DNA of 64,000 nt from an uncultured bacterium (GCA_964552055.1 CAZKFL010000003.1:21614-85613); one strand, 5' to 3'; shown: positions 2,483-48,138, numbered from the stretch's first letter. The notes: generated by a model not told the origin, from the letters alone. Numbers and translations are program-made.

Positions 2483-3097
2483 CTATATAATTTTCAATAA
2501 AAGCAATTGGTTAAATACCTTTTCATACTCCGCGAGCGTCATTGCTTTTTTCTCTTTAAATGATTGCATCACGGGTGCGTCTTGTAATTGAATCTCTCCA
2601 TCCTTTTCAGTGATCACTTGAAAACGCTCTTTTTCTGCAGGGCCTCGCACAATAAGACTTACCGTGTTGGGCTCTTCGATAATGGAATGATATTGAGAAT
2701 GATGCAATGTATAGCAGCTTCCTATATTTTCATGCCGAATCATGGCAGGAGTTAGGCAATATTTCATTGTTGTAAGCTGTTCCATTCGATAAATAGTGTG
2801 GTGATAGCCTCCGGAAAGGATTCGTGTTGAAAAATTCCAACGATGATTGTGAGCCCTTCCAATATCGATTTGATCTTGAGCGTTAACTTTATTGGGGTGG
2901 CCCGAATAAACATGTAGCCGAATCTGCATTTTTTTATCTTCGCTATTCCACAATACCAGCTTATCGACTCCCTCATAATGGACAGAATGAGAAAAGAGTT
3001 CCTCATTCTTTGGGATATCTAAGACAAGTTTGCGAAGTTGAGTGAGAGTCTTACGGGATAGCTCTTGAGCTATATTACTAAATTCAAAAAGTTTCAT
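2483..3097 (-). CDS. hypothetical protein, possibly a cupin-like metalloprotein; last gene of the riboswitch operon
   Basis: His-rich beta-strand motifs (GRAHNHRWNFSTRILSGGYHH ... YTLHHSQYHS) resemble cupin HxH...H metal sites. A 4-nt start/stop overlap with the upstream gene at 3094-3097 suggests translational coupling. Confidence 0.55.
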   Translation of the reverse strand: MKLFEFSNIAQELSRKTLTQLRKLVLDIPKNEELFSHSVHYEGVDKLVLWNSEDKKMQIRLHVYSGHPNKVNAQDQIDIGRAHNHRWNFSTRILSGGYHHTIYRMEQLTTMKYCLTPAMIRHENIGSCYTLHHSQYHSIIEEPNTVSLIVRGPAEKERFQVITEKDGEIQLQDAPVMQSFKEKKAMTLAEYEKVFNQLLLLKII

Positions 3098-3846
3098 GAC
3101 CTACCAATCCTATCAATTAAAATTACGGAGGCGATGTTATGTATGATAAGGGAGAGGGCGCTAAGAGGCCATCCCCGATAGATTTTGAAGATCCCATTTC
3201 GAGTAAATAAGTGGGATGGAGAAATATTTTGTGCCTGTTTCAGGGTGTTTGCGATATCGAATGGGGCGGATAGCAGGCTTACAATAAAAGCGACTTGGAC
3301 ACCGATTTTGACTAGTTGCGAAAGAGGTAAAGACCCTCCTGATAAAGCAATCGATTGTTCTCTAAGGTATTTTTGAGCTATTAAAAAAGCAGTCCAAGTC
3401 ACAGAAAGTTTAGACCAATTGGTGCTAAACCCGTCCCATCCATTTTTAAGAGAAAATTTGCTTGTTCCTCTAAAAGCAGAAATAATTTTGGCTCTTTCTA
3501 AAGGAGTCCCGATAGCAGCGTCAATTGTAGCGATCGATAAGCCAGTAAGAGCAAGGCCTGGAAGATTTTCTATTTTGTAGCTCTTTAAAAGAGGGGGTAT
3601 GCCAGTAATCATAGGCCAGCACCAAATTTGTTTTAAGCTGGTTTTTACTAATTGGGGAGCAAGCCCTTTATAAAAAGCTGCTAGTCCTTCTTCACGAAAC
3701 AATGTTAAAGCTACTTGAATACAATTCGATTCAGGTAGAGCGCATTGCTGACGGATTTTGACCACTTCCATGGGGAAAATGAGTGTGTGTACAGTTATTC
3801 CCCTTGCGACTCCCCATAAGCTACTTGATAATAAATCGTTACTCAT
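3094..3846 (-). CDS. mitochondrial carrier family (SLC25-like) membrane transporter
   Basis: Three spaced carrier signatures Px[DE]xx[KR]x[KR]-like: PMEVVKIRQQ, PLERAKIIS and PFDIANTLKQ. They sit ~85 aa apart, each following a hydrophobic helix. There is a 4-nt overlap with the MFS gene. Confidence 0.75.
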   Translation of the reverse strand: MSNDLLSSSLWGVARGITVHTLIFPMEVVKIRQQCALPESNCIQVALTLFREEGLAAFYKGLAPQLVKTSLKQIWCWPMITGIPPLLKSYKIENLPGLALTGLSIATIDAAIGTPLERAKIISAFRGTSKFSLKNGWDGFSTNWSKLSVTWTAFLIAQKYLREQSIALSGGSLPLSQLVKIGVQVAFIVSLLSAPFDIANTLKQAQNISPSHLFTRNGIFKIYRGWPLSALSLIIHNIASVILIDRIGRS

Positions 3847-5087
3847 AAAGCTTTTTCCGGTTTTTTAACTTTGGACATCATGATGATTCCACTACTCGCT
3901 AGGCCTAATATCATCCAGTGCCAGGAGGCGCTTGCTACCATTCCTGTTTTTTGAAAAGACCAAAGAGCCAAAGCTGCGGTAGGGCTGCCTATCGCTTGAG
4001 AGCCTAATGCATATCCCAGAGAAATAATGGCATAACGAGCATTTGAAGGAACAAGCTGGCTAGCCCAAGCATGAAATGGGGCAAAAAATGCAACACCAAT
4101 AACAACGAAGGCTGCTCTCACTGCAATAAGCAAAGGAAGGGATGCGCCTTCTAATAACAAAAACAGTGGGATTGCTAATAAAACAACACCCAAAGAAGCA
4201 GATAACATCAACTTCTCTCTTGACATTCGGGAGGCCACCCACCCAAAAAATGGTAGGGCACAAAAATCAAAAATGAGCAAATACGTGTTGATTCTCATCA
4301 CTTCTGCTTTTGTAATTGTTGATATGAGGGGAATAAACCCATTCATTAAAACTAATGCTATAGAATAGCATGCAGAACCAAAACCGGAGCAAATCACAAT
4401 GAATAGAAGAGCTTTTCTATGCGTCCAAAGAGTGCTCTTTAAATTTGTGAGCGTTTGGGAAAACTTGATCGGTTCTCGAGAAACTGGAGCAGAACGCCTA
4501 AATATGCAGCCAAAAAGCGCTGTTGCACAACCACATAAATAAAGCAGTCGCCATCCCGGATCTATAAAATTATACCTAGCAAGGAGGAAAACTCCAAGCG
4601 ATGCTAAAAGATGGCCGCCAAGAGTAGATGCGTTATAAAAACTACTGAGTAAATCGTGCCGTTTTTCAGGGGAGTTTTCCAAAAGAAAAATCGCCCCTCC
4701 CATTGTCTCTCCCGCTGCCAAAAAGTTTTGAAAAACCCTTCCAAAGAAAAAAATCAAAGGAGCTAACATGCCAACTTGAGCGTAAGTAGGGCTCAAAGCA
4801 ATACAACCCGAAATCAACGACATTCCTGCTAAAGTTAAAAATAGAGCATGTCTTCTTCCATAAACATCTCCAATATAACCAAATACCAAAGATCCAAGAG
4901 GACGCGCTAACATTCCTAATGGGATAATCGCATACGTCAAAATCAGCGCAGTAAGCGGGTCTTTGTTCGGAAAAATTAAGGGGGCTAGAAATGGAGATAG
5001 GAACCCAAAAAGAGCGGTATCATAATGCTCAAAAAGGTTGCCTAAACATGCATTCCAAAGTTGGAAACGGGATGTAGATGTAGGCAT
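3843..5087 (-). CDS. MFS transporter (metabolite:H+ symporter / ProP-like subfamily)
   Basis: About 12 hydrophobic helices and the loop 2-3 motif GFLARPLGSLVFGYIGDVYGRR. I prefer the ATG at 5087 (MPTSTSRF..., AAGGAG 8 nt upstream) over the TTG at 5132 used by the track. Confidence 0.9.
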   Translation of the reverse strand: MPTSTSRFQLWNACLGNLFEHYDTALFGFLSPFLAPLIFPNKDPLTALILTYAIIPLGMLARPLGSLVFGYIGDVYGRRHALFLTLAGMSLISGCIALSPTYAQVGMLAPLIFFFGRVFQNFLAAGETMGGAIFLLENSPEKRHDLLSSFYNASTLGGHLLASLGVFLLARYNFIDPGWRLLYLCGCATALFGCIFRRSAPVSREPIKFSQTLTNLKSTLWTHRKALLFIVICSGFGSACYSIALVLMNGFIPLISTITKAEVMRINTYLLIFDFCALPFFGWVASRMSREKLMLSASLGVVLLAIPLFLLLEGASLPLLIAVRAAFVVIGVAFFAPFHAWASQLVPSNARYAIISLGYALGSQAIGSPTAALALWSFQKTGMVASASWHWMILGLASSGIIMMSKVKKPEKAL

Positions 5088-5097
5088 ATTTGAATCT

Positions 5098-5124
5098 CCT
5101 TGGTAAAAGATAAAACCACCAAGG
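5098..5124 (-). promoter_or_regulatory. candidate Shine-Dalgarno-sequestering helix (expression platform of the TPP riboswitch)
   Basis: In the mRNA, CCUUGGU pairs with ACCAAGG across a 13-nt loop. The 3' arm overlaps the AAGGAG SD of the MFS gene. Confidence 0.45.
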
Positions 5125-5170
5125 GGAAGCAATAAAAAGAAATATGGAAAAAAGACTCTTCTTATACATT

Positions 5171-5256
5171 CACTCTTCCTACGCCAGCACTACCCGGTTC
5201 AGGTGTAAGGGACTCTCTCAGCTAAGATTGCCTATGACAACTTAGCACCCCTGGTG
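5171..5256 (-). promoter_or_regulatory. TPP (thiamine pyrophosphate, THI-box) riboswitch aptamer
   Basis: The reverse strand reads CACCAGGGGUGCUAAG...CUUAGCUGAGAGAGUCCCUUACACCUGAACCGGGUAGUGCUGGCGUAGGAAGAGUG. This matches the conserved GGGGUGC, CUGAGA, ACCUGA and GCUGGCGUAGGAA blocks of the E. coli thiM/thiC class. It lies 84 nt upstream of the MFS start. Confidence 0.9.
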
Positions 5257-5309
5257 TTTAAAATGAGACAAGTGTATATTTTCATCGATATTTTTAGCAA
5301 AGGAGAAAT

Positions 5310-6107
5310 ATGGATCAAAAAATCTATAAAGAATGGATTGCAGGAGTCTTTGATAGATCTGCCAATAAATATGGCGAAGGGAGCAATTGTTTTTTTGATT
5401 ACTTTGCTAAAGAGCTTGTTAAATTTGCAAATTTGCCACGTGGGGCGACTGTTTTAGATATTGCCACAGGTAGGGGGGCAATTCTTAAAGAGATATTGGA
5501 AAGCATTGGCACAGAAGGTAAAGTTGTAGGCATTGACATTAGTTCTAATATGATTGCGGAGACTAAGCAGAGGTTTAATTATCCTAATATCGATCTAATC
5601 TGCATGGATGCTGAAAATTTGAAGTTTGAAGATGCATCATTCGATTATGTCTTTTGTGGCTTTGCTCTTTTTTTCTTTCCCGATTTGCAAACAGCTTTAA
5701 AGGAGATTTTGAGGGTTCTTAAGCCTCGAGGCAAGTTGTTTATTTCTACCTGGGGAGAGGGGGATATCCAAGATCAAGCTTTTGATGATGTGTATAAAAA
5801 ATTTGAATTAAATGTGAAAACTCTCAAACACGATTTAAGCAATGCTAATGAGATTGAAAAAAATTTAAGGGCAATCGGATTTAAAGAGATAGAAATTGTT
5901 CCAAAAGAATTAGACCACATCTATCCAACTTTTGAAGATTGGTTTAATTCTCTATGGGATCATGCTGGCCGTGCTAAACTTGAAAAATGTAGCCCCGAGC
6001 AATTAATGGAATTACGTCATGATCTTGAGTCTATATTAAAACCCCATCTAAAACCAGATGGCTTGCATGAGATACTTCGTGCCAATTTTGCCACAGCAAC
6101 AAAATGA
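5310..6107 (+). CDS. class I SAM-dependent methyltransferase (UbiE/COQ5-like, Methyltransf_11 type)
   Basis: Motif I VLDIATGRGA, followed by VVGIDIS, DAENLKFEDASFDYVF and LKPRGKLFIS. Confidence 0.85.
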   Translation: MDQKIYKEWIAGVFDRSANKYGEGSNCFFDYFAKELVKFANLPRGATVLDIATGRGAILKEILESIGTEGKVVGIDISSNMIAETKQRFNYPNIDLICMDAENLKFEDASFDYVFCGFALFFFPDLQTALKEILRVLKPRGKLFISTWGEGDIQDQAFDDVYKKFELNVKTLKHDLSNANEIEKNLRAIGFKEIEIVPKELDHIYPTFEDWFNSLWDHAGRAKLEKCSPEQLMELRHDLESILKPHLKPDGLHEILRANFATATK

Positions 6108-6123
6108 GGCTAAGTAGAATATA

Positions 6124-6975
6124 ATGTTTACAATGACAAATGGTGCTCAAATTTTTTACAAAACCTTTGGTAAAGGAGATCCGATCATTCTGGTTCATGG
6201 CGGTCCTGGACTAAGTCATGATTATCTATTACCTTACTTGGCTAAACTTGCAGAGACGAATCTTGTTATCTTTTATGACCAACGTGGCTGCGGCCTATCA
6301 ATGGATGAAATCAATTCAGATTCCATTCAGATTGAAACATTTGTAGAAGATCTTGAAGCAATAAGAAGTGAGCTTGGACTTAAAAAGATAACTATACTGG
6401 GTCATTCATGGGGAGGCTTTTTGGCAATGAAGTATGCTATTGCCTATCCTGAATTCGTTCATAAGTTAATTCTATTAAATTCATTGCCTCCATCATCAGA
6501 CGAGTTTTCCTTATTCAGGCAAGAATGGGCAAGTCGAATGGAGTCTTATCAGGATGAAATTAAGCAGATTATGGAAACTCCAGAATTTGTCAAAGGAGAA
6601 GAATCGACCACTCAAAAATACTATCAAACCATTTTTGGAAGGTATTTCTATGATCCTGAGAAAGTAAAGCTCCTCAATCTAGAGATGAAACCAGATGCTT
6701 TTATCAATGGGCAAAAGGTTTATGCAATATTTAGTCAGAATCTACTTTCTAAACCTTTTAATCTTCACGATCAACTTAAGAGACTCGATATCATCACGTT
6801 AATAATTCACGGAGATTCAGATCCAGTTCCTCCTTCCACAGCTCAAAAGCTCCATGAAAGCATTCGTGGCTCTAAATACCATTTAATCAAAAATTGTGGT
6901 CATTTCCCCTTTGTCGAAACTCCGGATGAGTTATTCTTGCATTTAAATAACTTCCTTAGAAATGATTATGATTAG
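6124..6975 (+). CDS. alpha/beta hydrolase, proline-iminopeptidase-like (S33)
   Basis: HGGPG oxyanion motif, GHSWGG nucleophile elbow, and late Asp/His residues (GDSDPV, CGHFPF). Confidence 0.85.
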   Translation: MFTMTNGAQIFYKTFGKGDPIILVHGGPGLSHDYLLPYLAKLAETNLVIFYDQRGCGLSMDEINSDSIQIETFVEDLEAIRSELGLKKITILGHSWGGFLAMKYAIAYPEFVHKLILLNSLPPSSDEFSLFRQEWASRMESYQDEIKQIMETPEFVKGEESTTQKYYQTIFGRYFYDPEKVKLLNLEMKPDAFINGQKVYAIFSQNLLSKPFNLHDQLKRLDIITLIIHGDSDPVPPSTAQKLHESIRGSKYHLIKNCGHFPFVETPDELFLHLNNFLRNDYD

Positions 6976-6989
6976 AAAAAGGGTGTTTT

Positions 6990-8039
6990 ATGATTGAACA
7001 AAAGGTTTGTCTTGCGAGTGATAATTGGACTCCGGTGCATCCTTTAGTGATACAGGCTGTAATCGAAGCAAATGTTGGATATGCTCCTTCTTATGGATCT
7101 GATCCGTGGACTGAGGAAGCTGGAAAGTTAATTCAGTCAGCTTTTAAATCTAATTGCAAGGTCTTCATGGTTCCAACGGGAACTGGTGCAAATATCATAG
7201 GACTTAAACTTAGTTGCCACAGGCACGAATCGGTTATATGTACCGACATTGCACATATTCACTATCAAGAATCTGGTGCTGCTGAATCCATTATTGGTTG
7301 CAAACTCCTAACCGTTCCCCATCAAGAGGGAAAAATTACTCCGGATACGATAGTTAAAAAATTAATAAGTGAACGAGCATTTGGTAAGCATTCTACATCT
7401 CCTCGTGTTTTGTCGATTACTCAGCCGACTGAGGTAGGGACTGTCTACAGTTTAAAAGAACTTGAGGCTTTGTCTAACTTGTCCAAGAAAGAAAATTTAC
7501 TTCTCCACATTGATGGAAGTCGCCTTTATAATGCAGCAGTTAGTTTGAATATTTCTTTAAATGAGATGATTCATGCAATCCGTGTAGATATTTTATCGCT
7601 TGGAGGCACTAAAAATGGATTAATGGGCGCCGAAGCTCTTCTTATCTTTAATCCTGATCTCTATGAAGGAAGCGATCATTTGCATAAGCAAACCCTTCAA
7701 CTTTTATCAAAAATGCGCTACCTTTCCGCTCAATACATCCCTCTATTTAAGAATAATTTATGGCATACACTTGCCACAAATGCAAATCAAAGAGCTTTAG
7801 AAATTGCGCAGGTAATCAAAAGCATTCCTCAGCTTTCTTTAAGTTATCCAGTTGAGTCAAATCAAATCTTTTTTACCGCTCCCGCTTCTTGGATACCCTT
7901 AATTCAAAAAAAACTCTCTTGCTATCTTTGGAACAGCGAAAAAAATGAGGTTCGTTTTATTACTTCATGGAACACTTCTGAACAAGATGTAATTGACGTA
8001 AAATTAGCGTTTTCTGAATTGGCGCATAACCTAGTTTAA
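6990..8039 (+). CDS. PLP-dependent threonine-aldolase / beta-eliminating-lyase family enzyme
   Basis: Fold-type I layout with TGTGANI, HIDGSRL and the PLP-lysine motif SLGGTKNG, typical of low-specificity threonine aldolases. Confidence 0.75.
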   Translation: MIEQKVCLASDNWTPVHPLVIQAVIEANVGYAPSYGSDPWTEEAGKLIQSAFKSNCKVFMVPTGTGANIIGLKLSCHRHESVICTDIAHIHYQESGAAESIIGCKLLTVPHQEGKITPDTIVKKLISERAFGKHSTSPRVLSITQPTEVGTVYSLKELEALSNLSKKENLLLHIDGSRLYNAAVSLNISLNEMIHAIRVDILSLGGTKNGLMGAEALLIFNPDLYEGSDHLHKQTLQLLSKMRYLSAQYIPLFKNNLWHTLATNANQRALEIAQVIKSIPQLSLSYPVESNQIFFTAPASWIPLIQKKLSCYLWNSEKNEVRFITSWNTSEQDVIDVKLAFSELAHNLV

Positions 8040-24661: not shown

Positions 24662-27550
24662 ATGGTAAATAGTATGAGTGGTGATTTTAGATTAAGTGTT
24701 AGAGCTGAAGGACATGACTATCAATTTAGTTTAATCGAAACCACTCCTGATGAAGCAGATGTCACTTTGAATGGCGTTAGTTATTCTCTTACCACAAGTT
24801 CTGATAATGAGAGAATTAAACGAATAGTATTAGCTCATGTAGGCCTTCCCAAAACAGTGGAAGGATTAGTCAGAAATATCAGACATATTGATGGGATTGA
24901 AGAAGTTTCTTTTACTCCGATTGCGAAAACACATGCTGTTGCGGTATCTTCGCTGGCAGCTAAAGAAGCTGCTCCTGTTACTGCTGATCGAATTCAAGCG
25001 GCACGCGCATATTTGGACAAATTAAGAAGCAACCCTAGATTTTCAGGGGTTGTTCTAATTGGGGTTGGGGATGATATCGTGGCAGAGGAAGTTTTCCAGT
25101 CAGATAGTGTTGCCCAGAAACCGATCACGACTTCTATGCCATGGAATATTCAATCTATGGGTAAAAAATTCACTGAAGTAGCTATTATGCAGCTTGTTGA
25201 AGAAGACCTGATCAGTTTAGACACCCATATTCGTGATATTTTAACACTTGAAGATACTCAGTTGACCGATGCAGGGGAGTTTGAGCGCTTGTCTGGAGAA
25301 GATGATGGTGCTTGTTTACTCTCCTCTTCAGTGACAATAAGAGATCTATTAACGCATCGAGGAGGATTGGTAGGAGGATTTGAAGCTCCAGCACAATTTA
25401 TTTCTGAAGAAGTGGGAAAATACCACTACTCCAATCCAGGGTTTGCATTACTTGCTAAGGTTGTGGAAAGAGTGACTCATAAAAGTTTTGGTGATTATGT
25501 TAATGAGTATATTTGGAGGCCCTCAGGTATTACAGAATCTGCGAAATTTATTCACGAAGTGCCAAAAGCTAGTGATATTGCCGATCATTTCGTCTCTTCT
25601 ATGGTCGTAGAAGATATTAGGCCAACAAGTGCCACACCATCTCCTGCACATGGATATGGCTGTTTTTGGATGATGCCAAAGGATATGTGTAAATTTGCAT
25701 TGGCACTCGCAAACGGTGGGTTGTTTAAGAAACCAGAGACTGAAAAAATCCTTCACACACAAATATATGGTTGGGAACCTTCGTCTGACGAATTCCCTCA
25801 TTCGGGATATACATTTAATGGAAGAAGTCGTGATGCTTCATCACATTGTAGTATTGTTACCCAAAGAGATTTCCCAGATGCTCCAATTGCGGCTGTGGTT
25901 TTTTCAAATTTTACATTGGGAGCAGATGCAGGAGATGATATAATGCAAGCTTTATGTAACTTAAAATCTGTTCAATCTCTTAAAAAACAAGAAGAAGGAA
26001 TTGCATTTCTACAAAATCTTTTACAACTGCAAACAAGACAAGATAGGAAGGTTCTTCTTCAGGAATTTTTATCTACAAATCCAAATCCGAGTTATTTTTT
26101 TGACCTTAGCAGAACCTTGTTTGATAGAGGGCGAAATGACCTAATATCAGAAATAGCGGAAGGTTTGCCAAAAGAACTAAGGGATGATATATATACAGAT
26201 TTCAGCACTATTCCTGAACTTGTGGAAGTGGCTAAGTTATTTAAGTCTCCCGAAAGAGTAGCTGCTGAAAAAATGGATAGCTTATCCGAGTCAATGGCTA
26301 GAGAGGCATTTTTTTCGGGGTCGGTGCTTGTAGAAAAGGATGGTAAGGTGCTTCTTTGTAAAGGGTATGGAATGGCTACGGATTCGGTACCGAATGATTC
26401 ATCTTCTCGTTTTTATATTGCTTCTACAAGCAAACAATTTACAGCTGCCGCAATTATGAAACTTCAAGAAGCGGGAAAGATAGATCTACATAAATCAATT
26501 AATAACTATCTACCACCTGAATATCAATCTGAAAAATGGGAGGATGTTACTGTTCATCATCTTTTATCGAACACGTCAGGATTATATGATTTTCAAGATA
26601 CAGAAAATTTTGAAGAAAGATCTCGCTCTTTGACAGTGGATCAGATGATAAGAGAAGAAAAGGAGAAAGATTTAGAGTTTACGCCTGGATCTCAATTTGC
26701 ATATAGAAACGTGGGATATGAAATCCTTGGCAGTATTATTGAGCATGTTAGTGGAATGGCATATAGAGAATATCTATTGGAACATATTCTTATTCCTGCA
26801 GGAATGATCTCTTCAGATGTTCAAAGAGATGTCCACGAACTCGATCCTAGCACTTCTATTGGATACAAGTTAGATGATGAAGCAACAACGCTTGTTAAAG
26901 TCGTTCCAAAAGAGATTCGGCTTTTTCGTGCTGCTGGAGGTATTATATCAACTGTATCCGATCTAGCGAAATGGAGTCATGTACTCGATGATGGAGGGAG
27001 TGTTTTAAAAAAAGAATCGGTTGCCTTAATGACTACTCCAAATATAGATCATTATGGGTATGGGCTTGCTGAGATTGAAATGGGAGGAAAGAGGGTAATT
27101 CAGCATAATGGCGGTTTATCTGGCTATGCTTCCACATTTTGCAAGTATCCTGATGACAATCTTTTTATTACAATTTTGTCTAACAATCAATCAGTTGCAC
27201 TTGATAATCTTGCGGGGCGATTTGTAAATATTCTTTCTAATCCTGATAGTGTATCTGTTGAAGCAGTCCCTGCAGAAGGTATTGATTTATCCAAATTTGT
27301 TGGAATTTATAAATGTGAAGCAGAACCATTTCAATATAATTTTTCTCTTTCTTCGACGGGTAGATTGAATGTCGTGGATGTTTCCGGAGAAAGACCCTCT
27401 CCCATTTTTCACACATGCCTTTTATCTAATGGACACGTTTTTGTTCCTGAGATAGGACTTGAATTTGAAAAACGGGCCGATAGCAAAATGTATATGTATC
27501 ATCCTACGCAGAGTGATCCTATTGATGTTTTAAATCCTATAGAAAAATAA
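24662..27550 (+). CDS. 962-aa protein with two beta-lactamase-fold serine hydrolase domains
   Basis: Two SxxK sites (QSMGKKFTE and IASTSKQFTAAA). The second domain is closely similar to 23129..24658 (WEDVTVHHLLSNTSG, DLAKWSHVLD). Confidence 0.85.
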   Translation: MVNSMSGDFRLSVRAEGHDYQFSLIETTPDEADVTLNGVSYSLTTSSDNERIKRIVLAHVGLPKTVEGLVRNIRHIDGIEEVSFTPIAKTHAVAVSSLAAKEAAPVTADRIQAARAYLDKLRSNPRFSGVVLIGVGDDIVAEEVFQSDSVAQKPITTSMPWNIQSMGKKFTEVAIMQLVEEDLISLDTHIRDILTLEDTQLTDAGEFERLSGEDDGACLLSSSVTIRDLLTHRGGLVGGFEAPAQFISEEVGKYHYSNPGFALLAKVVERVTHKSFGDYVNEYIWRPSGITESAKFIHEVPKASDIADHFVSSMVVEDIRPTSATPSPAHGYGCFWMMPKDMCKFALALANGGLFKKPETEKILHTQIYGWEPSSDEFPHSGYTFNGRSRDASSHCSIVTQRDFPDAPIAAVVFSNFTLGADAGDDIMQALCNLKSVQSLKKQEEGIAFLQNLLQLQTRQDRKVLLQEFLSTNPNPSYFFDLSRTLFDRGRNDLISEIAEGLPKELRDDIYTDFSTIPELVEVAKLFKSPERVAAEKMDSLSESMAREAFFSGSVLVEKDGKVLLCKGYGMATDSVPNDSSSRFYIASTSKQFTAAAIMKLQEAGKIDLHKSINNYLPPEYQSEKWEDVTVHHLLSNTSGLYDFQDTENFEERSRSLTVDQMIREEKEKDLEFTPGSQFAYRNVGYEILGSIIEHVSGMAYREYLLEHILIPAGMISSDVQRDVHELDPSTSIGYKLDDEATTLVKVVPKEIRLFRAAGGIISTVSDLAKWSHVLDDGGSVLKKESVALMTTPNIDHYGYGLAEIEMGGKRVIQHNGGLSGYASTFCKYPDDNLFITILSNNQSVALDNLAGRFVNILSNPDSVSVEAVPAEGIDLSKFVGIYKCEAEPFQYNFSLSSTGRLNVVDVSGERPSPIFHTCLLSNGHVFVPEIGLEFEKRADSKMYMYHPTQSDPIDVLNPIEK

Positions 27551-35239: not shown

Positions 35240-36307
35240 ATGCACATCAACTGCTCCAGAGGAGCCTACACATATTCCATTGATTTAGAAGAATCTACTT
35301 CTGGTGATTTGGCTATTGGAGGAAAAAGATTTAATCTAAGTGTTTCCGGAACTGATCCTGAGTTAGATAATTTGCAACCACTAATCCGAGCTGCTTTTGA
35401 AAGCTCAACTGGCCAATTAAGTGACCTAACAGCTAAAACCATAAGCGTAGGTTTTGATGTAAAGGGTGCAAGGGAAAGATATCCTGGCACTGGGGTAGAA
35501 CTGATTTCTAGGATTGAAGAAACAGTCCATAGAACTATTGATACCATGGATTATGATGGTCTCAAACCCTATTTAAAATTACTTGATGAGCTTGATGCTG
35601 GAAAAGATCTTTCCGAAGCTTCTCTCTCATTAGAAAAAGATGAAAGAGGGACCATATGTACTGGAGTGACCTTAGCTATATTAAAAAATTTGTACCGTGA
35701 ACATGAAATTACAGGTATGGTTGCAGGAGGAGAAGATCTCGGTCATGCTGCTGCAATAATCGAATGCCAAGATGGTTATGTTCTAATTGATAACCGCTCG
35801 ATTAAAGATAACCGGCTCTTTTTTGCCCCTTTTAACACGACGATTGAATACAGCTTTATAGACATAGCTAATGATCCTCCTACTGTTACATTTAAATTAA
35901 CTGCTGGCCCACCAGGCTCTCCCACACCATTAACTCAAACATATGGAACTGAACCTCACATATTTTTAACTGACCTACCGAATATTGGTGATTTAATTTC
36001 AAAAGCCTATATCCAACATACCATTACCTCATATATTCCCATCGTCGTCTACCGAGAAGATGGGAGAGCCTTAAAAGATATCAAAGTCTCCCCAAGCAGA
36101 AATACCGTCACCTTAAAAGATCACATCACAGGTATTAAAAAAGAATTCACATTTAAGCAGATTATGGATGGCGAATTGTCCATAGATGAACTAAAAGCAT
36201 TTATGGGAAAAAGGGTCTTCCACTCAAAAAGGCGAACAGTTTATGAAGAAATTATTCGAGTTGTTAGTCAAATCGAAAGAATCCGATCACTTTTTTCCGA
36301 AAAGTAA
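35240..36307 (+). CDS. cargo protein: shared N-terminal module plus a candidate Cys-His-Asp (transglutaminase / NAT / papain-like) core
   Basis: The N-terminus YTYSIDLEESTSGDLAIGGKRFNL matches the N-termini of 23129 and 24662. ERGTICTGVTLAIL...LGHAAAIIECQDGYVLIDN gives C-29-H-15-D spacing. A possible sigma70 promoter reads TTGACA (35194-35199), 18 nt, TATATC. Confidence 0.65.
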   Translation: MHINCSRGAYTYSIDLEESTSGDLAIGGKRFNLSVSGTDPELDNLQPLIRAAFESSTGQLSDLTAKTISVGFDVKGARERYPGTGVELISRIEETVHRTIDTMDYDGLKPYLKLLDELDAGKDLSEASLSLEKDERGTICTGVTLAILKNLYREHEITGMVAGGEDLGHAAAIIECQDGYVLIDNRSIKDNRLFFAPFNTTIEYSFIDIANDPPTVTFKLTAGPPGSPTPLTQTYGTEPHIFLTDLPNIGDLISKAYIQHTITSYIPIVVYREDGRALKDIKVSPSRNTVTLKDHITGIKKEFTFKQIMDGELSIDELKAFMGKRVFHSKRRTVYEEIIRVVSQIERIRSLFSEK

Positions 36308-39641: not shown

Positions 39642-41984
39642 TCAGCTCTTTTCTTTTAGTGTGGATAAGGGTCTATCAAATACTAGAGAGATGGTTTGAT
39701 TAGATGGACCGTTGCGATTTTTAAGAACAACTAAGTCAAGATCAACCATGCGATTCATAGAAGAATCACCTTTGGCATCGGCTGATTCTTTTGCACCATT
39801 CCAAATACCTAAGACAAGTTTTGCATCATTTTCTATGTCGCCCGCTTCGCGTAAGTTATCAAGTCTTAATACTTCTGATTTTGTGGAACCTCTTCCGAGC
39901 TGAGCTCCTAAAATAATAGGGACAGAGTTGAATTTTGCTGTTTCAAGGATGCTTTCAGAGATTTTTTGAAGCTCGAGTTGTCTAGTGGAAGATTTTCCTC
40001 GAAATTTTATTTTTTGGATGTAATCAATAAAGATGGCGCCCATTTTCCCCCGTTCTTTGAGGCTTGCGATTTCTTTTCCCAAGTCATCTACAAAAAATGG
40101 ATGATCGCAAACAACTAGTCGATGAGATTCTGTCCAGGATTGAAGTGTAATGATAGCCTCGTTAATTTTAGGAAGTTTGTTGATGCCCCCTCTGAGATAT
40201 CCCTCTAAATTTGAGAGATTGTTGGCTTCATTAATGCATTCGCCACTAAGGATGTTCAAAATTTTTAAAAGGATCTGATTTTTTGGCTCTTCATAGGAGA
40301 AAAAATAGAATTCGCGATCAGGATATAATTTGACCATGTTTACAAAGAAATTCAATAATGTAGTCGTCTTTCCATGCGAAGGCCTTCCTGCAATGATTGT
40401 GATGGCTTCTTGAGGGATTTGAATGGTCTTATCAATTGACTTGTATCCGGTTTTTAGCCCTTCTTGAATATTTGATAAATCTGCTTTTAGATTATTTACT
40501 GTATATGGCTTCACTTGGAAAGATTTAGGTTTGTCTTCATTTTTTAATTTTGAAAGGAGTTGACTCGCTTTAGTAAGGTCTCCTTCAGAAATGAGTTTTT
40601 GAGTTTCTTCTAAAGATTGTTTGTATTTTTCGGCATCGTCTTGAATTTTTTGTTCTTTTAGTGCTTTTGCAAGAATGTCATCGCTTTCGTTGGGAGCCAA
40701 GTTAAAAATGTCTTCTATCTCTTTTTTAAAAATACTTTTTCGGAATGCATCATCAATTTGAGCATATGCTTTAGAAGCCCCGCCAAGGGCTGAAAATCGA
40801 CCGATATCGGTTGCCAGGTCATATTTATAGGAAAAATAAGATGGAAGCCACCTAACGCGCGCCTTAGCCTTTTCTTCAACAATCCTTTTAAAAGCTTCAG
40901 GACCGTTTGCTTTTACGTATTCATCAGGATCCTTGAATGGAGCTAGTAGATGTGGAGGAAGGATAAATGTTTCAATTCCATTTTTTTCTAAAAGTTCTGA
41001 GGCTTTTTTTGCCTTTTCAATAGATCCTATTTCGCCTTTGCTATCCTTACTGTCGTTGTCAAAAACAATAATTACTCGCTCAATTTCATAAATTTTTAAA
41101 CTTTCAATATGTTTTGCAGATAATTCTCCTTGTCCAGTGGCTGCGATATTTTTTATTCCTAAACATGGAAGATAGGCAGCGTCGGGAAGGCCTTCTACTA
41201 AGATGAGTTGTTTTTGTTTTCGGCATTGGTAAATATTGAAAGGATCGTCTTTTTTAAGACCGGCAGTATAACTCCACCGATGAAGTTTTCCTTCATTATC
41301 AGAGATCCCTTCCTTAATTGTAGCTCTTTTGGCAAATCCAAGAATTTTACCAAATCTATCTCTGTATGGAAGAGCTGCTCTAAATTGATCTCCACCGTTT
41401 CCATTGAGCTTGATCGAAGTTGCTTCATGCTCCCTTTCCTTGGGAAGCTTGGATTTTAAATGTTCTCTTATTTTAGTGTCTTCTGGCCAATAAATCCATT
41501 CGGTAGTCTGAAGTTTGATAGGATCATATCCTCTGACTTCAGTTAAATAGTCGAGCGCTTCTTTTCCTTCTGAAGTGAATAAGAGCTCCTTTCCATATTG
41601 AAAGATCATCTCATAGAGATAGGAAGTTGGATAGGACGATTTTTCAGGGAGTGAAAAATTACCTTTTTGCAGCTCTTCGATTAGATCGGTACGGAATGTT
41701 TCAGCGAGATATTTACAGGCCTCTACAAAATTAAGACCTTTTTCTCTTTGGATAAGCTCAATGATATCAAATGATTCATTGCAGCTAAAGCAATGTAAAT
41801 GACCCCAACCCGGGCCTAACTTGCAACATTGTGAGCTTTTTGAATCGTGACCTGCAATGCAGTTGCCTACTAAATAGCCTCCAACTGATTTAAATCCTAG
41901 TTTATGCCGGAGATCAAGATGGTCGATAACCTCTTCTACTCGTATGGAGGCTTTGAGCTTTTCTTTAGCCAAATTACCGATCAT
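39642..41984 (-). CDS. bifunctional DNA primase / DnaB-family replicative helicase
   Basis: CHC2 zinc finger (CIAGH...HCFSCNESFDIIELI), TOPRIM (LILVEGLPDA ... VIIVFDNDSKD), Walker A IIAGRPSHGKTTT and Walker B AIFIDYIQKI. Confidence 0.9.
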   Translation of the reverse strand: MIGNLAKEKLKASIRVEEVIDHLDLRHKLGFKSVGGYLVGNCIAGHDSKSSQCCKLGPGWGHLHCFSCNESFDIIELIQREKGLNFVEACKYLAETFRTDLIEELQKGNFSLPEKSSYPTSYLYEMIFQYGKELLFTSEGKEALDYLTEVRGYDPIKLQTTEWIYWPEDTKIREHLKSKLPKEREHEATSIKLNGNGGDQFRAALPYRDRFGKILGFAKRATIKEGISDNEGKLHRWSYTAGLKKDDPFNIYQCRKQKQLILVEGLPDAAYLPCLGIKNIAATGQGELSAKHIESLKIYEIERVIIVFDNDSKDSKGEIGSIEKAKKASELLEKNGIETFILPPHLLAPFKDPDEYVKANGPEAFKRIVEEKAKARVRWLPSYFSYKYDLATDIGRFSALGGASKAYAQIDDAFRKSIFKKEIEDIFNLAPNESDDILAKALKEQKIQDDAEKYKQSLEETQKLISEGDLTKASQLLSKLKNEDKPKSFQVKPYTVNNLKADLSNIQEGLKTGYKSIDKTIQIPQEAITIIAGRPSHGKTTTLLNFFVNMVKLYPDREFYFFSYEEPKNQILLKILNILSGECINEANNLSNLEGYLRGGINKLPKINEAIITLQSWTESHRLVVCDHPFFVDDLGKEIASLKERGKMGAIFIDYIQKIKFRGKSSTRQLELQKISESILETAKFNSVPIILGAQLGRGSTKSEVLRLDNLREAGDIENDAKLVLGIWNGAKESADAKGDSSMNRMVDLDLVVLKNRNGPSNQTISLVFDRPLSTLKEKS

Positions 41985-42016: not shown

Positions 42017-42517
42017 TCAGTTATTTTCTTGTTCTTCCATGCTGATGAGTAGTTGGATTGCTTCACAAATCATTTCTGATTTTTCTGTAGCTCTTCCTTG
42101 TAATATTCGGTTTGCATAGAGATCATTAAATGCCTTATGAATGTCTTCTCTTAAGTTAAAGGTCATTTTACAAGTGGGAACTCGTTGATTTTTTGATTGC
42201 TTGCTCAGGATAATTGGTTGTCTGGCTGGGTGGGGTTCCGGCCTAACATCCGTCTGGGTGGGTGGAAATGTGGGTTGTTGGAAAGTTTGCGTAATGGGTG
42301 GCTGGACTTCTGGCTGACTGGTCACCCGGTTGATAGGATTTACGGGTTGTTGGTTGTCCAGTCGGTTGGTTTGTTGGATTTCTGTATTACCATCTTTCTG
42401 GTTGTCTGGTTTACCAACCGTTTGATCATCAAACATTTCTCCTAAACCCATCTTACGTTTTTCATTCATTTGGAGTTGTTTTTTAGATTTTTCTTTGAGT
42501 TCATTAATTCCTGACAT
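42017..42517 (-). CDS. ParG-like ribbon-helix-helix centromere-binding partner of ParA, with a Gln/Pro-rich linker
   Basis: The C-terminus KMTFNLREDIHKAFNDLYANRIL...EMICEAIQLLI is RHH-like and sits immediately downstream of parA. I prefer the ATG at 42517 (MSGINELKEK). Confidence 0.55.
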   Translation of the reverse strand: MSGINELKEKSKKQLQMNEKRKMGLGEMFDDQTVGKPDNQKDGNTEIQQTNRLDNQQPVNPINRVTSQPEVQPPITQTFQQPTFPPTQTDVRPEPHPARQPIILSKQSKNQRVPTCKMTFNLREDIHKAFNDLYANRILQGRATEKSEMICEAIQLLISMEEQENN

Positions 42518-43283
42518 TAGATAGTCTCCCCATAACTTCATTAACTAAATTTCCATATGCTTCCGCTCCAGAGCATTTTGGATCATGGTCAAATACTGAT
42601 TTACTAGATTCCTGAGCTTCACTGAGCTTTATATTCTCGGGAATTTTGGTTTCAAATACCTTATCGCCAAATAGATCGTTGACGGCATCTAATACGCGCT
42701 TTGCTAGATTGCTTCGTGTTTTAAAAAACGTAAAGAGAACACCCATAATTTGAGCATGATGATCTACTAGGCTGCCAGCCTTTTCATTTGTACAATTGAT
42801 AGATTCTAAAAATGACTGAATACCTGCAAGGCTAAAGTAATCAAGTTGAACAGGTAAAATAATATGTTCTGCTGTTAAAAATGCATTTGCTAAGAGCGTG
42901 TTGAAAGTGGGAGATGTATCGATAATAATATAGTCGTATTCTGCATATTTTAGTTTTTTTCTTAAGACAAATTCCTTTGCTGTAGTTTGCGCGAGTTTAT
43001 ATTCTGCTGCTGATAGCGAGTTGTCAGAAGGGATTACATGTAGATTAGGAATATATGATTGTTGGACTACATCTTTAACGGTACAATTGTCTTGGCAGAG
43101 AAGCTCTGCAATTGTTTGGCGATTTTCTGTCTTGATTCCAAGACCTAGGCTTGAATGGCCTTGCGGATCCAAATCAACAAGGAGGACTCTGTTACCTGCT
43201 TTAGCAAGCCCTGCGCTTAAGTTGATTGAGGTAGTTGATTTTCCAACCCCGCCCTTTTGATTTGAAATAGCAATTTTGTGCAT
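42504..43283 (-). CDS. parA: ParA/Soj-type partition ATPase (small, type Ib-like)
   Basis: Deviant Walker A KGGVGKST (IAISNQKGGVGKSTTSINL), LVDLDPQG and IIDTSP. Confidence 0.9.
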   Translation of the reverse strand: MHKIAISNQKGGVGKSTTSINLSAGLAKAGNRVLLVDLDPQGHSSLGLGIKTENRQTIAELLCQDNCTVKDVVQQSYIPNLHVIPSDNSLSAAEYKLAQTTAKEFVLRKKLKYAEYDYIIIDTSPTFNTLLANAFLTAEHIILPVQLDYFSLAGIQSFLESINCTNEKAGSLVDHHAQIMGVLFTFFKTRSNLAKRVLDAVNDLFGDKVFETKIPENIKLSEAQESSKSVFDHDPKCSGAEAYGNLVNEVMGRLSNVRN

Positions 43284-44690: not shown

Positions 44691-45416
44691 TTAAATTTCG
44701 TAATATGTTATATAAGCCCATTGAGTTGCTGTAGCTGCGTCTGTATTAATCACTATGGAATCACCTGCATTCATAGAGATGGGATTCGATACGTTAGCAT
44801 TGGCATTGTTTGCGACTGCTGTATTTTGCAAATATTGATTGCCAGTCCCAGGGGATTCACCATTTGGAACGTGATAGATGTTGATGTTTCTGCTTGCGCC
44901 CGAAATATTTTTATAGAGACCACCAGAGGCGTTTACGTACACTCCGCCACTGCTATCGATAGCGATTGCTGTGCTTCCTGAATCCACAGTCAAAAGTGTA
45001 TTATTTCCAGCAGATAAGCTCAGTAATCGAGCTGTGTAAAGAGGGGTTGAAATGTCCATTTCCATGACTCTTACCCAAAGATTTCCACCCGGGTTAGAGT
45101 TCACAATAACGGAAAAGCTTTCTCCTGCATTTATCACTTGTCCAATAAAAAGACGAGCCGCAGTTCCTAGAAGTGTATTCAAGGGAGTAAGAGGATAATA
45201 GGTACCACTCACTTTTATATTGAGACTTCCCGTCATACCTGGAGAAGCTCCGGCGCCATATATCCATGTAAGAAAGGCTTTTTTTCCAGAGGGACACGTA
45301 TAGATATCGACCGTTCCAGAAGTGCTACCGGAAAAGCCATTGACAAACTTAGCTCCTCTAATCAAGGGGCCATAACCACTGATAAAACCTACACCGTTAA
45401 TTACATTGTTACCCAT
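44691..45416 (-). CDS. tail-fibre-cluster paralog 3 of 3 (YTCPxGK / VPNGxSPG family)
   Basis: VDIYTCPSGKKA, IYHVPNGESPGTGNQ and NAGDSIVINTDAATATQWAYI are shared with the two upstream genes. Confidence 0.65.
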   Translation of the reverse strand: MGNNVINGVGFISGYGPLIRGAKFVNGFSGSTSGTVDIYTCPSGKKAFLTWIYGAGASPGMTGSLNIKVSGTYYPLTPLNTLLGTAARLFIGQVINAGESFSVIVNSNPGGNLWVRVMEMDISTPLYTARLLSLSAGNNTLLTVDSGSTAIAIDSSGGVYVNASGGLYKNISGASRNINIYHVPNGESPGTGNQYLQNTAVANNANANVSNPISMNAGDSIVINTDAATATQWAYITYYEI

Positions 45417-45417
45417 T

Positions 45418-46929: not shown

Positions 46930-46930
46930 A

Positions 46931-47596: not shown

Positions 47597-47600
47597 AATT

Positions 47601-48101: not shown

Positions 48102-48138
48102 GTTACAATATCTATTACAGTGAGGTTAATCTTGATTT

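Follow-up and report, generated by a model that had tools for sequence, protein, structure and literature searches.

A conserved TPP riboswitch precedes genes for an MFS permease, a mitochondrial-carrier-fold protein and a cupin in Chlamydiota

Overview

We found a TPP riboswitch aptamer upstream of three overlapping genes in a 64 kb stretch of DNA, which we call the window. The genes, all on the minus strand, encode (in order after the riboswitch) an MFS permease, a mitochondrial-carrier-fold protein and a cupin. On balance, we lean toward the interpretation that TPP represses this operon, and that the operon serves a Rhabdochlamydiaceae-like chlamydia, obligately intracellular and auxotrophic for thiamine, in acquiring thiamine compounds. 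The two transporters are the best current candidates for the uptake of vitamin B1 from the host by chlamydia-like bacteria. The features are listed in Table 1.

Table 1. Features of the operon and its leader in the window
Feature	Position	Strand	Basis
Candidate promoter: TTGCTA (5300-5295), 16 nt, TATACA (5278-5273)	5273..5300	-	Read from sequence
TPP riboswitch aptamer (THI element)	5158..5262	-	RF00059 covariance-model match
Expression platform (predicted)	5096..5129	-	MFE and centroid folds
MFS permease, MHS-like, 414 aa, first cistron	3843..5087	-	Pfam MFS_1, Sugar_tr
Short mitochondrial-carrier-fold protein, 250 aa	3094..3846	-	Pfam Mito_carr and AF2 model; start overlaps MFS stop
Putative 3-His cupin, 204 aa	2483..3097	-	AF2 model; start overlaps carrier stop (ATGA)

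The riboswitch and its expression platform

The aptamer matches the Rfam model RF00059 over model positions 1-105 of 105 with a score of 58.5 bits (gathering threshold 54.3, E 6.6e-09), and this match is the sole Rfam hit across the 64 kb window. The first-pass annotation had placed a TPP aptamer at 5171-5256 on the minus strand, an interval that falls within the match, and had proposed RF00059 as the model against which to check the leader; the score bears this out. The CUGAGA and ACCUGA/GCGUAGG motifs are both found in the aptamer. Its 3′ end is separated by 70 nt from the start codon of the MFS gene, which is on the same strand. Judged by score, leader position and conservation, the aptamers in the window and at orthologous loci belong to the TPP riboswitch class. 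Roughly 10 nt 5′ of the aptamer is a sequence that might function as the promoter. It is absent from the output of a consensus scan because its -10 hexamer ends in A.

The leader has a predicted expression platform in which an anti-Shine-Dalgarno arm can pair with two alternative partners. This arm, CUUCCCCUUGGUGG (5129-5116), pairs with ACCAAGGAG (5104-5096), a sequence that contains the Shine-Dalgarno AAGGAG (5101-5096). The resulting 9-bp hairpin is present in MFE and centroid folds alike. The arm is also complementary to the aptamer 5′ strand ACACCAGGGG, and the duplex of arm and aptamer has a dG of -18.8 and a z of -3.5 in the window, with values of -15 to -21 and -2.6 to -4.7, respectively, in most loci. 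A hairpin that sequesters the Shine-Dalgarno is predicted 5′ of the first gene in 16 loci, and its sequence differs among loci, with CCUGG/CCAGG becoming CCUUGG/CCAAGG by a change on both arms. In three loci (L016, L020 and L024), the Shine-Dalgarno and start codon lie in or against the aptamer 3′ strand. These predicted structures suggest that the platform is conserved, the anti-Shine-Dalgarno arm having mutually exclusive partners: the Shine-Dalgarno or the aptamer 5′ strand.

Conservation of the hairpin was judged by per-sequence folds and duplex energies, not by formal pair counting, which we dropped because two sequences had the hairpin 3′ arm misplaced in the MAFFT alignment. Folded as a whole, the leader does not exceed shuffled sequences in stability (z -0.63), and therefore local alternative pairings alone were used. 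We rejected a transcription-terminator platform, as a scan of the window leader found no terminator-like site from the aptamer to the start codon.

We propose that, when TPP is low, the 5′ strand of the unliganded aptamer (CACCAGGGG) would pair with the downstream, pyrimidine-rich anti-Shine-Dalgarno arm. With this arm held by the aptamer, the Shine-Dalgarno would be free and the MFS gene would be translated. Ribosomes ending one cistron would restart at the ATGA overlap, such that the carrier and the cupin would be made in step. Upon binding of TPP, the aptamer would close, the freed arm would pair with the Shine-Dalgarno and the whole chain would be switched off at the level of translation.

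The encoded proteins

Two 4-nt ATGA overlaps, which had been claimed for the gene junctions at 3846-3843 and 3097-3094, are both present in the sequence. The start codon of the MFS gene is most likely the ATG at 5087 rather than the TTG at 5132, with AAGGAG upstream. The first-pass annotation of the product as an MHS-type MFS transporter agrees with its Pfam matches to MFS_1 (68 bits, cutoff 33.4) and Sugar_tr (53.9 bits, cutoff 22.3). Its best NCBIfam model, TIGR00883 (metabolite/H+ symporter), aligns over the full length (residues 16-394 to model positions 1-395), though its score of 207.6 bits is under the cutoff of 443.45. By these sequence matches, the protein is MHS-like and lies outside the curated TIGR00883 subfamily. 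Its best 120 relatives are 67-88% identical to it. The few with a source name are from Chlamydiales-type MAGs, and the protein names are generic.

The second protein had been described as an SLC25-like carrier, and both a Pfam match to Mito_carr (PF00153; 66.5 bits, cutoff 22.3, two repeats detected) and the fold of the AlphaFold (AF2) model support that description. The model (pLDDT 88, pTM 0.85) has six long helices and short matrix helices. In Foldseek searches, it aligned over ~280 columns with a TMq (TM normalized to query length) of 0.80 to UCP1 and 0.70 to the ADP/ATP carrier; the top structural matches are UCP1 and an oxoglutarate/malate carrier. When the three thirds of the protein were compared as profiles, the alignments brought the signature motifs into register, with weak but consistent E-values of 1e-3 to 1e-4. 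The carrier profile gave repeat-level matches only to proteins in the PDB, namely GGC1 and UCPs. As judged by the model, the mitochondrial-carrier (SLC25) fold with six helices and three repeats is confirmed.

The first two signature motifs of the carrier, P25-M-E-V-V-K30 and P115-L-E-R-A-K120, are almost invariant in the clade. The third, P195-F-D-I-A-N200, has an almost invariant N where Px[DE]xx[KR], the pattern of the matrix salt-bridge network on helices 1, 3 and 5, expects K/R. The cytoplasmic network, [FY][DE]xx[KR], is degenerate: helix 2 reads W-C-W-P-M-I-T, which has neither an acidic nor a basic member of the pair, and helices 4 and 6 have partial matches only (YLRE and IDRI). Members of the clade have 230-280 aa and the window protein has 250, fewer than the ~300 aa that serve as a criterion for SLC25. 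The protein is thus a short and very divergent carrier, which we compare with the TPP carriers Tpc1 and SLC25A19 by analogy. Its K and R residues number 14 on the matrix-equivalent face and 5 on the opposite face of the model, a distribution that fits insertion into a bacterial membrane with the same polarity as in mitochondria. We found 129 relatives, of which the few with an organism name are from chlamydial MAGs, and a profile search retrieved 152 clusters below 1e-30. One match to the profile (P0421) is on a bacterial contig, adjoins an ATP synthase operon and is without a riboswitch.

The third protein has no Pfam or NCBIfam match at E below 0.05. The first-pass annotation had called it a His-rich cupin-like protein that a Pfam Cupin search could check. 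The Pfam search gave no match, and the description was borne out by structure prediction. The AF2 model (pLDDT 89) has a cupin barrel, and the PDB entries that it matches best are mercaptosuccinate, ergothioneine, 3-mercaptopropionate and cysteine dioxygenases (E ~1e-6, TM ~0.5). Seven residues are invariant (H83, H85, R86, H100, H132, H133 and H137), and H137 is followed by ...VSLIVRGP..., without His-x-Tyr. The modeled protein resembles a thiol-dioxygenase-like cupin beta-barrel with a 3-His metal site. By sequence, it is in neither CDO_I nor PCO_ADO, and the catalytic Ser-His-Tyr is not evident. The family has 60 members, all in close relatives.

Conservation of the operon in Chlamydiota

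We studied a carrier-anchored sample of 23 Chlamydiota species genomes (MAGs) that encode the carrier, in which 22 loci are informative for the riboswitch, and a second sample of MFS-anchored loci, 16 of them informative. The riboswitch occurs upstream on the same strand in 19/22 informative carrier-anchored loci. Seventeen of these aptamers score above the gathering score, one is exactly at it and one is below. In the MFS-anchored sample, 9/16 informative loci have a riboswitch at the gathering score, and there is one weaker match in addition; here too, every match is upstream on the same strand. An MFS gene is directly 5′ of the carrier gene in 19/23 loci, with overlaps of 1 or 4 nt. The riboswitch occurs directly 5′ of the carrier gene in one locus that does not have the MFS gene (L010), and 5′ of the MFS gene alone in two others (L030 and L034). 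Therefore, each transporter is individually under the apparent control of TPP. Genes in six loci (L018, L019, L023, L029, L031 and L036) have no detectable riboswitch.

At least 13 loci have a divergent ThiE-like (TMP-TENI) gene as the first gene, whose best model is thiE; this position ties the module to thiamine. The thiamine-scavenging interpretation made in the first-pass annotation is thereby much strengthened, given that orthologous Chlamydiota operons share the riboswitch and most have the ThiE-like gene. That annotation also stated that the operon has no thiamine biosynthesis gene. This is true of the window, in which no such gene occurs in the operon or the rest of the 64 kb, but it is not a property of the module, as most orthologous operons carry the ThiE-like gene. 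We rejected a thiE elsewhere in the window, because none was detected by tblastn with three ThiE-like queries from chlamydiae. L026 has a shortened ThiE-like gene, and the window, L007, L016, L020 and L024 have none; both transporters are kept in these cases. In the lineage of the window, its absence has the appearance of a clean, lineage-specific loss.

The ThiE-like proteins score 88-128 bits against TIGR00693, all below its cutoff of 145.1. We compared the Mg2+ and pyrophosphate ligands of B. subtilis ThiE (Q57, R59, K61, N92, D93, D112 and S130), after checking the numbering against the chain of the S130A mutant, 1g67. The ThiE-like proteins retain Q57, R59 and N92 and have variable or replaced residues at the positions that match D93, D112, K61 and S130. 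Since these proteins are without the Mg2+-binding Asp residues of B. subtilis ThiE, the ThiE-like partner does not identify the substrate of the transporters.

Function of the operon and alternative explanations

Rhabdochlamydia is reported to be unable to make thiamine (PMC9997750), and the eukaryotic carriers Tpc1p and SLC25A19 transport ThPP and ThMP (PMC9311062). In the function that we favor, the MFS permease and the carrier would both be in the bacterial inner membrane and would import thiamine compounds of the host. If the TPP carriers of eukaryotes are a guide, the carrier would most plausibly handle the phosphorylated forms (TPP/TMP), and the cupin could be a clade-specific accessory enzyme. 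Several facts count against thiamine uptake: the known substrates of the MHS-type MFS family are organic acids and osmolytes rather than vitamins, the carrier has diverged greatly, and some loci have no detectable riboswitch.

Alternatively, the transporters could import HMP and thiazole (or their phosphates) for the ThiE-like enzyme to join, in which case the ThiE of the window organism would be elsewhere. This idea accounts economically for two transporters, one for each of two precursors, and for the TMP-TENI gene at the head of many operons. Moreover, Rodionov-type comparative genomics has established that HMP and thiazole transporters are often under the control of TPP riboswitches. However, the scores of the ThiE-like proteins below the thiE cutoff and the lack of conservation at the positions of D93, D112 and S130 argue against this idea, as does the persistence of the transporters where the gene is shortened or absent. 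Given also that no thiE occurs within the window and that little free HMP or thiazole is expected from an animal host, we regard such precursor salvage as rather unlikely. A different type of alternative is that the transporters carry dicarboxylates or oxo-acids and thus offset the stalling of TPP-dependent enzymes when TPP is low. Such substrates are typical of MHS permeases and of carriers of the oxoglutarate or uncoupling-protein type. The curated models nearest to the MFS protein are indeed tricarballylate, alpha-ketoglutarate-type and ProP symporters, and the best structural matches of the carrier include the oxoglutarate/malate carrier in addition to UCP1. These matches are at the level of fold or family only, the co-occurrence of the ThiE-like gene favors a thiamine substrate, and we know of no TPP riboswitch that controls non-thiamine metabolism. 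This bypass is accordingly a very improbable explanation.

The first-pass annotation suggested that the module might tap the TPP of a host organelle. In such a two-membrane relay, a secreted carrier in the inclusion membrane or in mitochondria would release TPP, which the MFS permease would then import. Insertion into a eukaryotic membrane would come naturally to a carrier of eukaryotic type, and LncP is a precedent for a bacterial mitochondrial carrier that is delivered to host mitochondria (PMC3252375). The tight coupling of two unlike transporters could mirror two successive barriers, and control by bacterial TPP would fit as well. Nevertheless, we found no support for this proposal, and three observations make it improbable: the carrier gene is translationally coupled to that of an inner-membrane permease, the K/R bias of the carrier fits normal inner-membrane insertion, and the carrier has six spans, while known type III secreted membrane proteins nearly all have one or two (PMC6110835). 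No secretion signal or chaperone gene was apparent, by methods that do not detect such features. Finally, the operon could be an artefact, arising from a false-positive riboswitch or from an assembly error that put a eukaryotic gene on a bacterial contig. The window aptamer is just 4 bits above the gathering threshold, and the carrier family is regarded as eukaryotic. The comparative data refute this explanation, whose probability we consider negligible. The riboswitch recurs at orthologous loci, so a chance hit was rejected, and 23 species-level MAGs, along with additional metagenome contigs, have the arrangement. Eukaryotic contamination or a chimeric assembly was likewise rejected, as the ORFs overlap, the three genes have the same GC content as the window, and the divergence of the neighboring MFS and carrier genes is correlated (Spearman 0.73, n=24).

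Obligately intracellular bacteria that do not make thiamine must import it or its active form, and to our knowledge no thiamine or TPP transporter is known in chlamydiae. By its position, the riboswitch points to two concrete, testable candidates for this uptake. It also acts as a free functional label, in that it suggests what an orphan SLC25 branch and an orphan MFS clade may transport.

Comparison with known systems

Like the riboswitch of E. coli thiM, the new riboswitch has an RF00059 aptamer and an anti-Shine-Dalgarno segment that can pair with the Shine-Dalgarno or part of the aptamer. The operon also resembles riboswitch-controlled operons for thiamine transporters (thiBPQ, thiT, pnuT and cytX, among others) in that transport genes are under TPP control. 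Unlike those systems, it encodes an MHS-type MFS permease and a mitochondrial-carrier-fold protein, families that we do not know to carry thiamine in bacteria, and control would be exerted via overlapping cistrons. It would clearly illustrate how the effect of a translational riboswitch can spread through such cistrons.

SLC25 is viewed as a family that arose in eukaryotes and is rare in bacteria, where its members are secreted effectors. The large chlamydial clade, located in riboswitch-controlled bacterial operons, challenges this picture and bears on the origin of SLC25. It shares six helices, three repeats and, on the first two odd-numbered helices, Px[DE]xx[KR] with the eukaryotic TPP carriers (yeast Tpc1p, human SLC25A19 and the Drosophila and plant TPCs), from which it differs by its third motif, its degenerate cytoplasmic network, its bacterial operon and its size (250 versus ~300-320 aa, the matrix loops of repeats 2 and 3 being shortened). 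The link to TPP comes from a riboswitch for the chlamydial carrier and from transport assays for the eukaryotic ones (PMC9311062). The Mito_carr proteins of Legionella (LncP), L. longbeachae and Neorickettsia are similar in that a carrier gene is found in an intracellular bacterium (PMC3252375, PMC5621508). LncP, an effector of the Dot/Icm system, is delivered to host mitochondria and transports ATP (PMC3252375). In contrast to LncP, the chlamydial carriers are shorter, controlled by a riboswitch, coupled to a bacterial permease and present in many Chlamydiota lineages.

The first-pass annotation knew of no description of this combination of elements. We found none of the riboswitch-controlled operon in the literature that we searched (on riboswitch, mitochondrial carrier, chlamydiae and thiamine), although the chlamydial Mito_carr proteins themselves had been mentioned, in one sentence on a Pfam listing that places them in "a few Chlamydiales" (PMC5621508). 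We tentatively entertain the more specific, and somewhat doubtful, possibility that these proteins are native inner-membrane cofactor transporters, that the carriers are the first SLC25 members to be seen working in a bacterium's own membrane and under bacterial control, and that chlamydiae thereby have their missing importer of TPP or thiamine phosphates. If so, an ancient exchange of the carrier gene between chlamydiae and early eukaryotes, in either direction, would be indicated, because many Chlamydiota lineages have the carrier and its divergence tracks that of the MFS protein. Such an exchange would resemble what happened with the ATP/ADP translocases.

The putative cupin shares its barrel and the H-x-H ... 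H triad with thiol dioxygenases (cysteine, 3-mercaptopropionate, mercaptosuccinate, ergothioneine and PCO/ADO). It is set apart from them by the lack of a sequence-family match, the TM of only ~0.5 and the Ser-His-Tyr that is not evident after the third His. The spacing of its His residues (83, 85 and 137) matches that in rat cysteine dioxygenase (86, 88 and 140). Relative to the thiol dioxygenases, the protein has an extra N-terminal segment of three helices.

Organization of the operon

A TPP riboswitch (RF00059) is the sole Rfam match in the window, all 64 kb of which were scanned. It is followed on the same strand by three ORFs, encoding an MFS permease, a mitochondrial-carrier-fold (SLC25-like) protein, here called the carrier, and a cupin. 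The riboswitch and three genes described in the first-pass annotation are thus confirmed, and the ATGA overlaps that it claimed at both gene junctions are present. Its family assignments were also right, as seen in matches to MFS_1, Sugar_tr and Mito_carr and in a cupin barrel in the predicted structure of the third protein. The GC content of the three genes is the same as that of the remaining window (0.39-0.42). Coordinates, including those for comparison loci from other genomes or metagenome contigs (handles beginning with L), are collected in the table.

Coordinates of features in the window and in comparison loci
Sequence	Feature	Coordinates	Strand	Remarks
Window	TPP riboswitch RF00059	5262..5158	minus	58.5 bits, gathering score 54.3; full model covered
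Window	Pyrimidine-rich anti-SD arm	5129-5116		CUUCCCCUUGGUGG
Window	Shine-Dalgarno region	5104-5096		ACCAAGGAG
Window	ORF 1, MFS permease	5087 to 3843	minus	most likely start (ATG); AAGGAG at 5101-5096, nine bases before
Window	ORF 2, carrier	3846-3094	minus	start overlaps ORF 1 end (ATGA)
Window	ORF 3, cupin	3097-2483	minus	start overlaps ORF 2 end (ATGA)
Window	Class I SAM-dependent methyltransferase	5310-6107	plus	UbiE/COQ5-like, 89 bits
Window	Phage-like region	~28000-64000		examples: 58143-60023, 51119-53104, 54164-55027, 55992-57062, 62318-63247, 39642-41984, 42504-43283
Window	Tandem arrays of paralogous ORFs	13105-14770; 18151-21847; 44691-48801; 23129-27550 with 35240-36307
L003	ThiE-like gene	4020-4727
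L004	ThiE-like gene	4023-4730
L008	ThiE-like gene	4041-4736
L026	ThiE-like gene	4100-4504		truncated
L004	Nudix hydrolase	6737-7189		Pfam NUDIX, 55 bits
L024	Nudix-like ORF	7243-7686		judged by eye only
L024	Methyltransferase homologue	4171-4461	minus
L035	Methyltransferase homologue	3868-4158	minus
L027	MFS permease	4498-5748
L027	Carrier	5748-6551
L025	Longer carrier	6001-6909
L031	Longer carrier	6439-7344	minus
L009	Near-perfect hairpin	5788-5950
L018	Near-perfect hairpin	691-895
L040	Near-perfect hairpin	9869-9967

Divergent from the riboswitch operon is a methyltransferase gene; two distant loci have a homologue (30% identical) at the corresponding position, which could be a coincidence or a functional link.

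Expression platform

We found no terminator-like site in the leader. Immediately 5′ of the start codon is a predicted hairpin, in which a pyrimidine-rich arm pairs with the Shine-Dalgarno region. Such a sequestering hairpin is predicted 5′ of the first gene in 16 loci, regardless of that gene's identity, and between lineages CCUGG/CCAGG becomes CCUUGG/CCAAGG, with changes in both arms. The arm is also complementary to the aptamer 5′ strand (ACACCAGGGG), and in most loci the predicted duplex has an energy of -15 to -21 kcal/mol and a z-score of -2.6 to -4.7 relative to shuffled arms. The E. coli thiM riboswitch works by three-way competition of this kind among arm, Shine-Dalgarno and aptamer strand, and the chlamydial leader resembles it in this respect. 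Without TPP, the aptamer strand would occupy the anti-SD arm and the ribosome-binding site would be open; with TPP, the aptamer would close and the arm would block that site. Three comparison loci (L016, L020 and L024) are more compact, with the Shine-Dalgarno and start codon in or against the aptamer 3′ strand. Given that TPP control would act on translation of the first cistron only, repression likely reaches the downstream genes via the conserved overlapping stop and start codons.

Conservation across Chlamydiota

Searching the protein collection with the carrier gave 129 relatives, all lacking a functional name; where an organism is given, which is seldom, it is a MAG of Rhabdochlamydiaceae or Chlamydiales. 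When GTDB species were scanned with one genome each, 23 carrier-anchored loci emerged, the majority labelled as Chlamydiota MAGs and several as Verrucomicrobia, Acidobacteriota or "uncultured bacterium"; we take the non-Chlamydiota labels to reflect mislabelled chlamydial bins. At 17 of the 23, RF00059 matches upstream on the same strand above the gathering score. The match is exactly at that score in L022 and below it in L009 (42.9 bits, with an inserted hairpin). Upstream sequence is absent from the data for L021, and there is no upstream match in L018, L019 or L023. The MFS gene is directly 5′ of the carrier gene in 19 of the 23, with overlaps of 1 or 4 nt. Some MAGs with the operon are complete or nearly so, among them OY970369.1, CAWHDP010000002.1 and CAWHZZ010000001.1. 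A further sample, drawn independently from metagenomes with the MFS gene as anchor, comprises 25 loci; nine have a match above the gathering score, one (L040) a weaker match (38.5 bits), and six informative loci no riboswitch match.

Across loci, the identities of the MFS permease and the carrier to those of the window are correlated (Spearman 0.73, n=24), so the pair has largely been co-inherited, with the carrier evolving faster. An outlier is L027, whose permease is 74% identical to the window protein and whose adjacent carrier is only 39% identical, a contrast that points to replacement by another carrier lineage. Three loci contain long, near-perfect hairpins that match numerous microRNA precursor models from plants and animals, in every case below the gathering score; these probably represent palindromic repeat elements. 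In L009 such a hairpin lies between the MFS and carrier genes and disrupts their usual overlap.

Operon variants

At least 13 loci have another gene (~230 aa), absent from the window, between the riboswitch and the MFS gene (the table lists three intact examples; there are ~10 more). Its product is a TMP-TENI protein (Pfam 78-115 bits), and its best NCBIfam model is thiE (88-128 bits, cutoff 145). This ThiE-like gene ties the module to thiamine. The first-pass annotation had noted that the operon contains no thiamine gene. This is true of the window operon, and no thiE occurs within the 64-kb window, but it does not extend to these relatives.

We aligned the ThiE-like proteins to the solved B. 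subtilis ThiE, with numbering fixed via the S130A mutant chain. Residues Q57, R59 and N92 are shared with the chlamydial proteins, which show no conservation at the positions of the Mg2+-binding aspartates D93 and D112, of K61 or of S130. These proteins form a conserved yet divergent TMP-TENI clade, with invariant residues of its own (C50-V-Q-x-R-D55, Y101-x-E103, D141 and K146). On this alignment they probably do not act as standard thiamine phosphate synthases, and they may have another function. The gene is truncated in L026 and absent from the window, L007, L016, L020 and L024, and is in the process of loss. The window operon has the leader, hairpin and start codon of its relatives, joined straight onto the MFS coding sequence.

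In L010 the riboswitch is directly 5′ of the carrier gene, with no MFS gene, and in L030 and L034 it precedes an MFS gene with no carrier gene; each transporter seems to be separately under TPP control. Next after the carrier gene in L004 is one for a Nudix hydrolase, and a Nudix-like ORF is two genes downstream in L024. Plants and yeast have Nudix enzymes that act on damaged thiamine diphosphates, although a link between these neighbours and the thiamine operon is speculative.

The encoded proteins

The permease matches Pfam MFS_1 (68 bits) and Sugar_tr (54 bits). Its best curated model, TIGR00883 (metabolite/H+ symporter subfamily), matches over the full length at 207.6 bits, well under the cutoff of 443.

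The carrier matches Mito_carr (66.5 bits), and its AlphaFold model, built on 73 relatives, has a pLDDT of 88 and a pTM of 0.85. The predicted structure has six long helices, with short helices between helices 1 and 2 and between 5 and 6, and when the three thirds of the protein are aligned to one another, their signature motifs fall in register. A Foldseek search of the PDB gave significant scores solely for mitochondrial carriers, with query-length-normalised TM-scores of 0.80 for UCP1, 0.75 for an oxoglutarate/malate carrier and ~0.70 for ADP/ATP carriers, each over ~280 columns. The protein is nonetheless atypical for its fold: it is short (250 aa; 230-280 aa in its clade), Px[DE]xx[KR] occurs on helices 1 and 3 but is P-F-D-I-A-N on helix 5, and the cytoplasmic-side motifs are degenerate. 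Lysine and arginine number 14 on the matrix-equivalent face and 5 on the opposite face, which matches the positive-inside rule for a bacterial inner membrane, with mitochondrial polarity.

When 1.84 billion representative proteins were searched with a profile, 152 clusters scored below 1e-30. Among the best 150 of these, ~120 consist of short proteins like that of the window, followed by longer carriers of 280-310 aa. One of the longer carriers (L025) is encoded next to an operon for an F-type ATP synthase, on a bacterial contig of 158 kb, and has no riboswitch. Another longer carrier gene is an extra one in L031, convergent with the thiamine operon; both are ~300 aa and more canonical. Bacterial carriers are thus more numerous than the literature suggests, and several families appear to exist.

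The third protein has no match in Pfam or NCBIfam. Its model is a cupin barrel (pLDDT 89), and thiol dioxygenases lead its PDB matches (mercaptosuccinate, ergothioneine, 3-mercaptopropionate and cysteine dioxygenases, together with PCO; E ~1e-6, TM ~0.5). H83, H85 and H137 are invariant, with the same spacing as in the cysteine dioxygenase metal triad, but the remainder of that enzyme's catalytic motif is not evident. With 60 members confined to the clade nearest the window, this family is a late addition to the operon.

Probable function of the operon

The operon is most simply read as a TPP-repressed module that would take up thiamine compounds for an intracellular bacterium unable to make them. 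The comparative evidence supports thiamine scavenging as a likely role, in line with the first-pass annotation. A spider Rhabdochlamydia is reported to lack B-vitamin synthesis, thiamine included (PMC9997750), and the eukaryotic proteins Tpc1p and SLC25A19, which share the carrier's fold, transport ThPP and ThMP across the inner membrane of mitochondria and do not transport thiamine (PMC9311062). Together, these reports favour phosphorylated thiamine for the carrier and thiamine or a related compound for the permease. We lean slightly towards an arrangement in which both would be in the bacterial inner membrane, the carrier as importer or exchanger and the permease as proton-coupled importer.

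Salvage of pyrimidine and thiazole precursors via the ThiE-like enzyme is an unlikely alternative, given the residues that this protein lacks. Export of the carrier to a host-derived membrane, like LncP, is less likely again. Bacterial homologues of mitochondrial carriers do include secreted Legionella effectors, and are listed for L. longbeachae and Neorickettsia (PMC3252375); Pfam's listing of Mito_carr in a few Chlamydiales has been mentioned in passing (PMC5621508). However, more than two membrane spans are rare among surveyed type III substrates (PMC6110835), the lysine and arginine bias suits ordinary inner-membrane insertion, and the gene is translationally coupled to the permease. None of these points is decisive, but they leave the earlier proposal of host-organelle TPP tapping unsupported. 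Least probable of all is a TPP-sparing metabolic bypass with substrates other than thiamine.

TPP riboswitches preceding thiamine transporters are well known, but to our knowledge no bacterial thiamine transporter comes from either of the families seen in this operon. A full-text search, whose incomplete coverage leaves an earlier mention possible, turned up neither this operon nor any riboswitch-controlled carrier. This is a TPP-riboswitch transport operon made from unprecedented parts. It supplies testable candidates for a missing vitamin importer of chlamydiae, and places a eukaryote-type carrier under plainly bacterial control.

Other features of the window

A large part of the window is a contractile-tailed phage-like region. 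PHROGs matches include tail sheath (367 bits), major head protein (320 bits), baseplate wedge and hub, tape measure, primase/helicase, a RecT-like protein and a ParA-like partition protein. Since the chlamydial phages known to us are small Microviridae, a myovirus-type prophage or phage-plasmid adjoining genes of a chlamydia may merit its own study.

The window also has tandem arrays of paralogous ORFs. One comprises four ORFs (~90-155 aa) with a common N-terminal "...TRPMSPFARARAS..." segment, and another six ORFs (~165-250 aa), several with a VDxYTCPxGKRA motif. Others are two pairs of ORFs of 240-325 aa, and two large ORFs share an N-terminal SIxLxE..GxxxIGGxR region.
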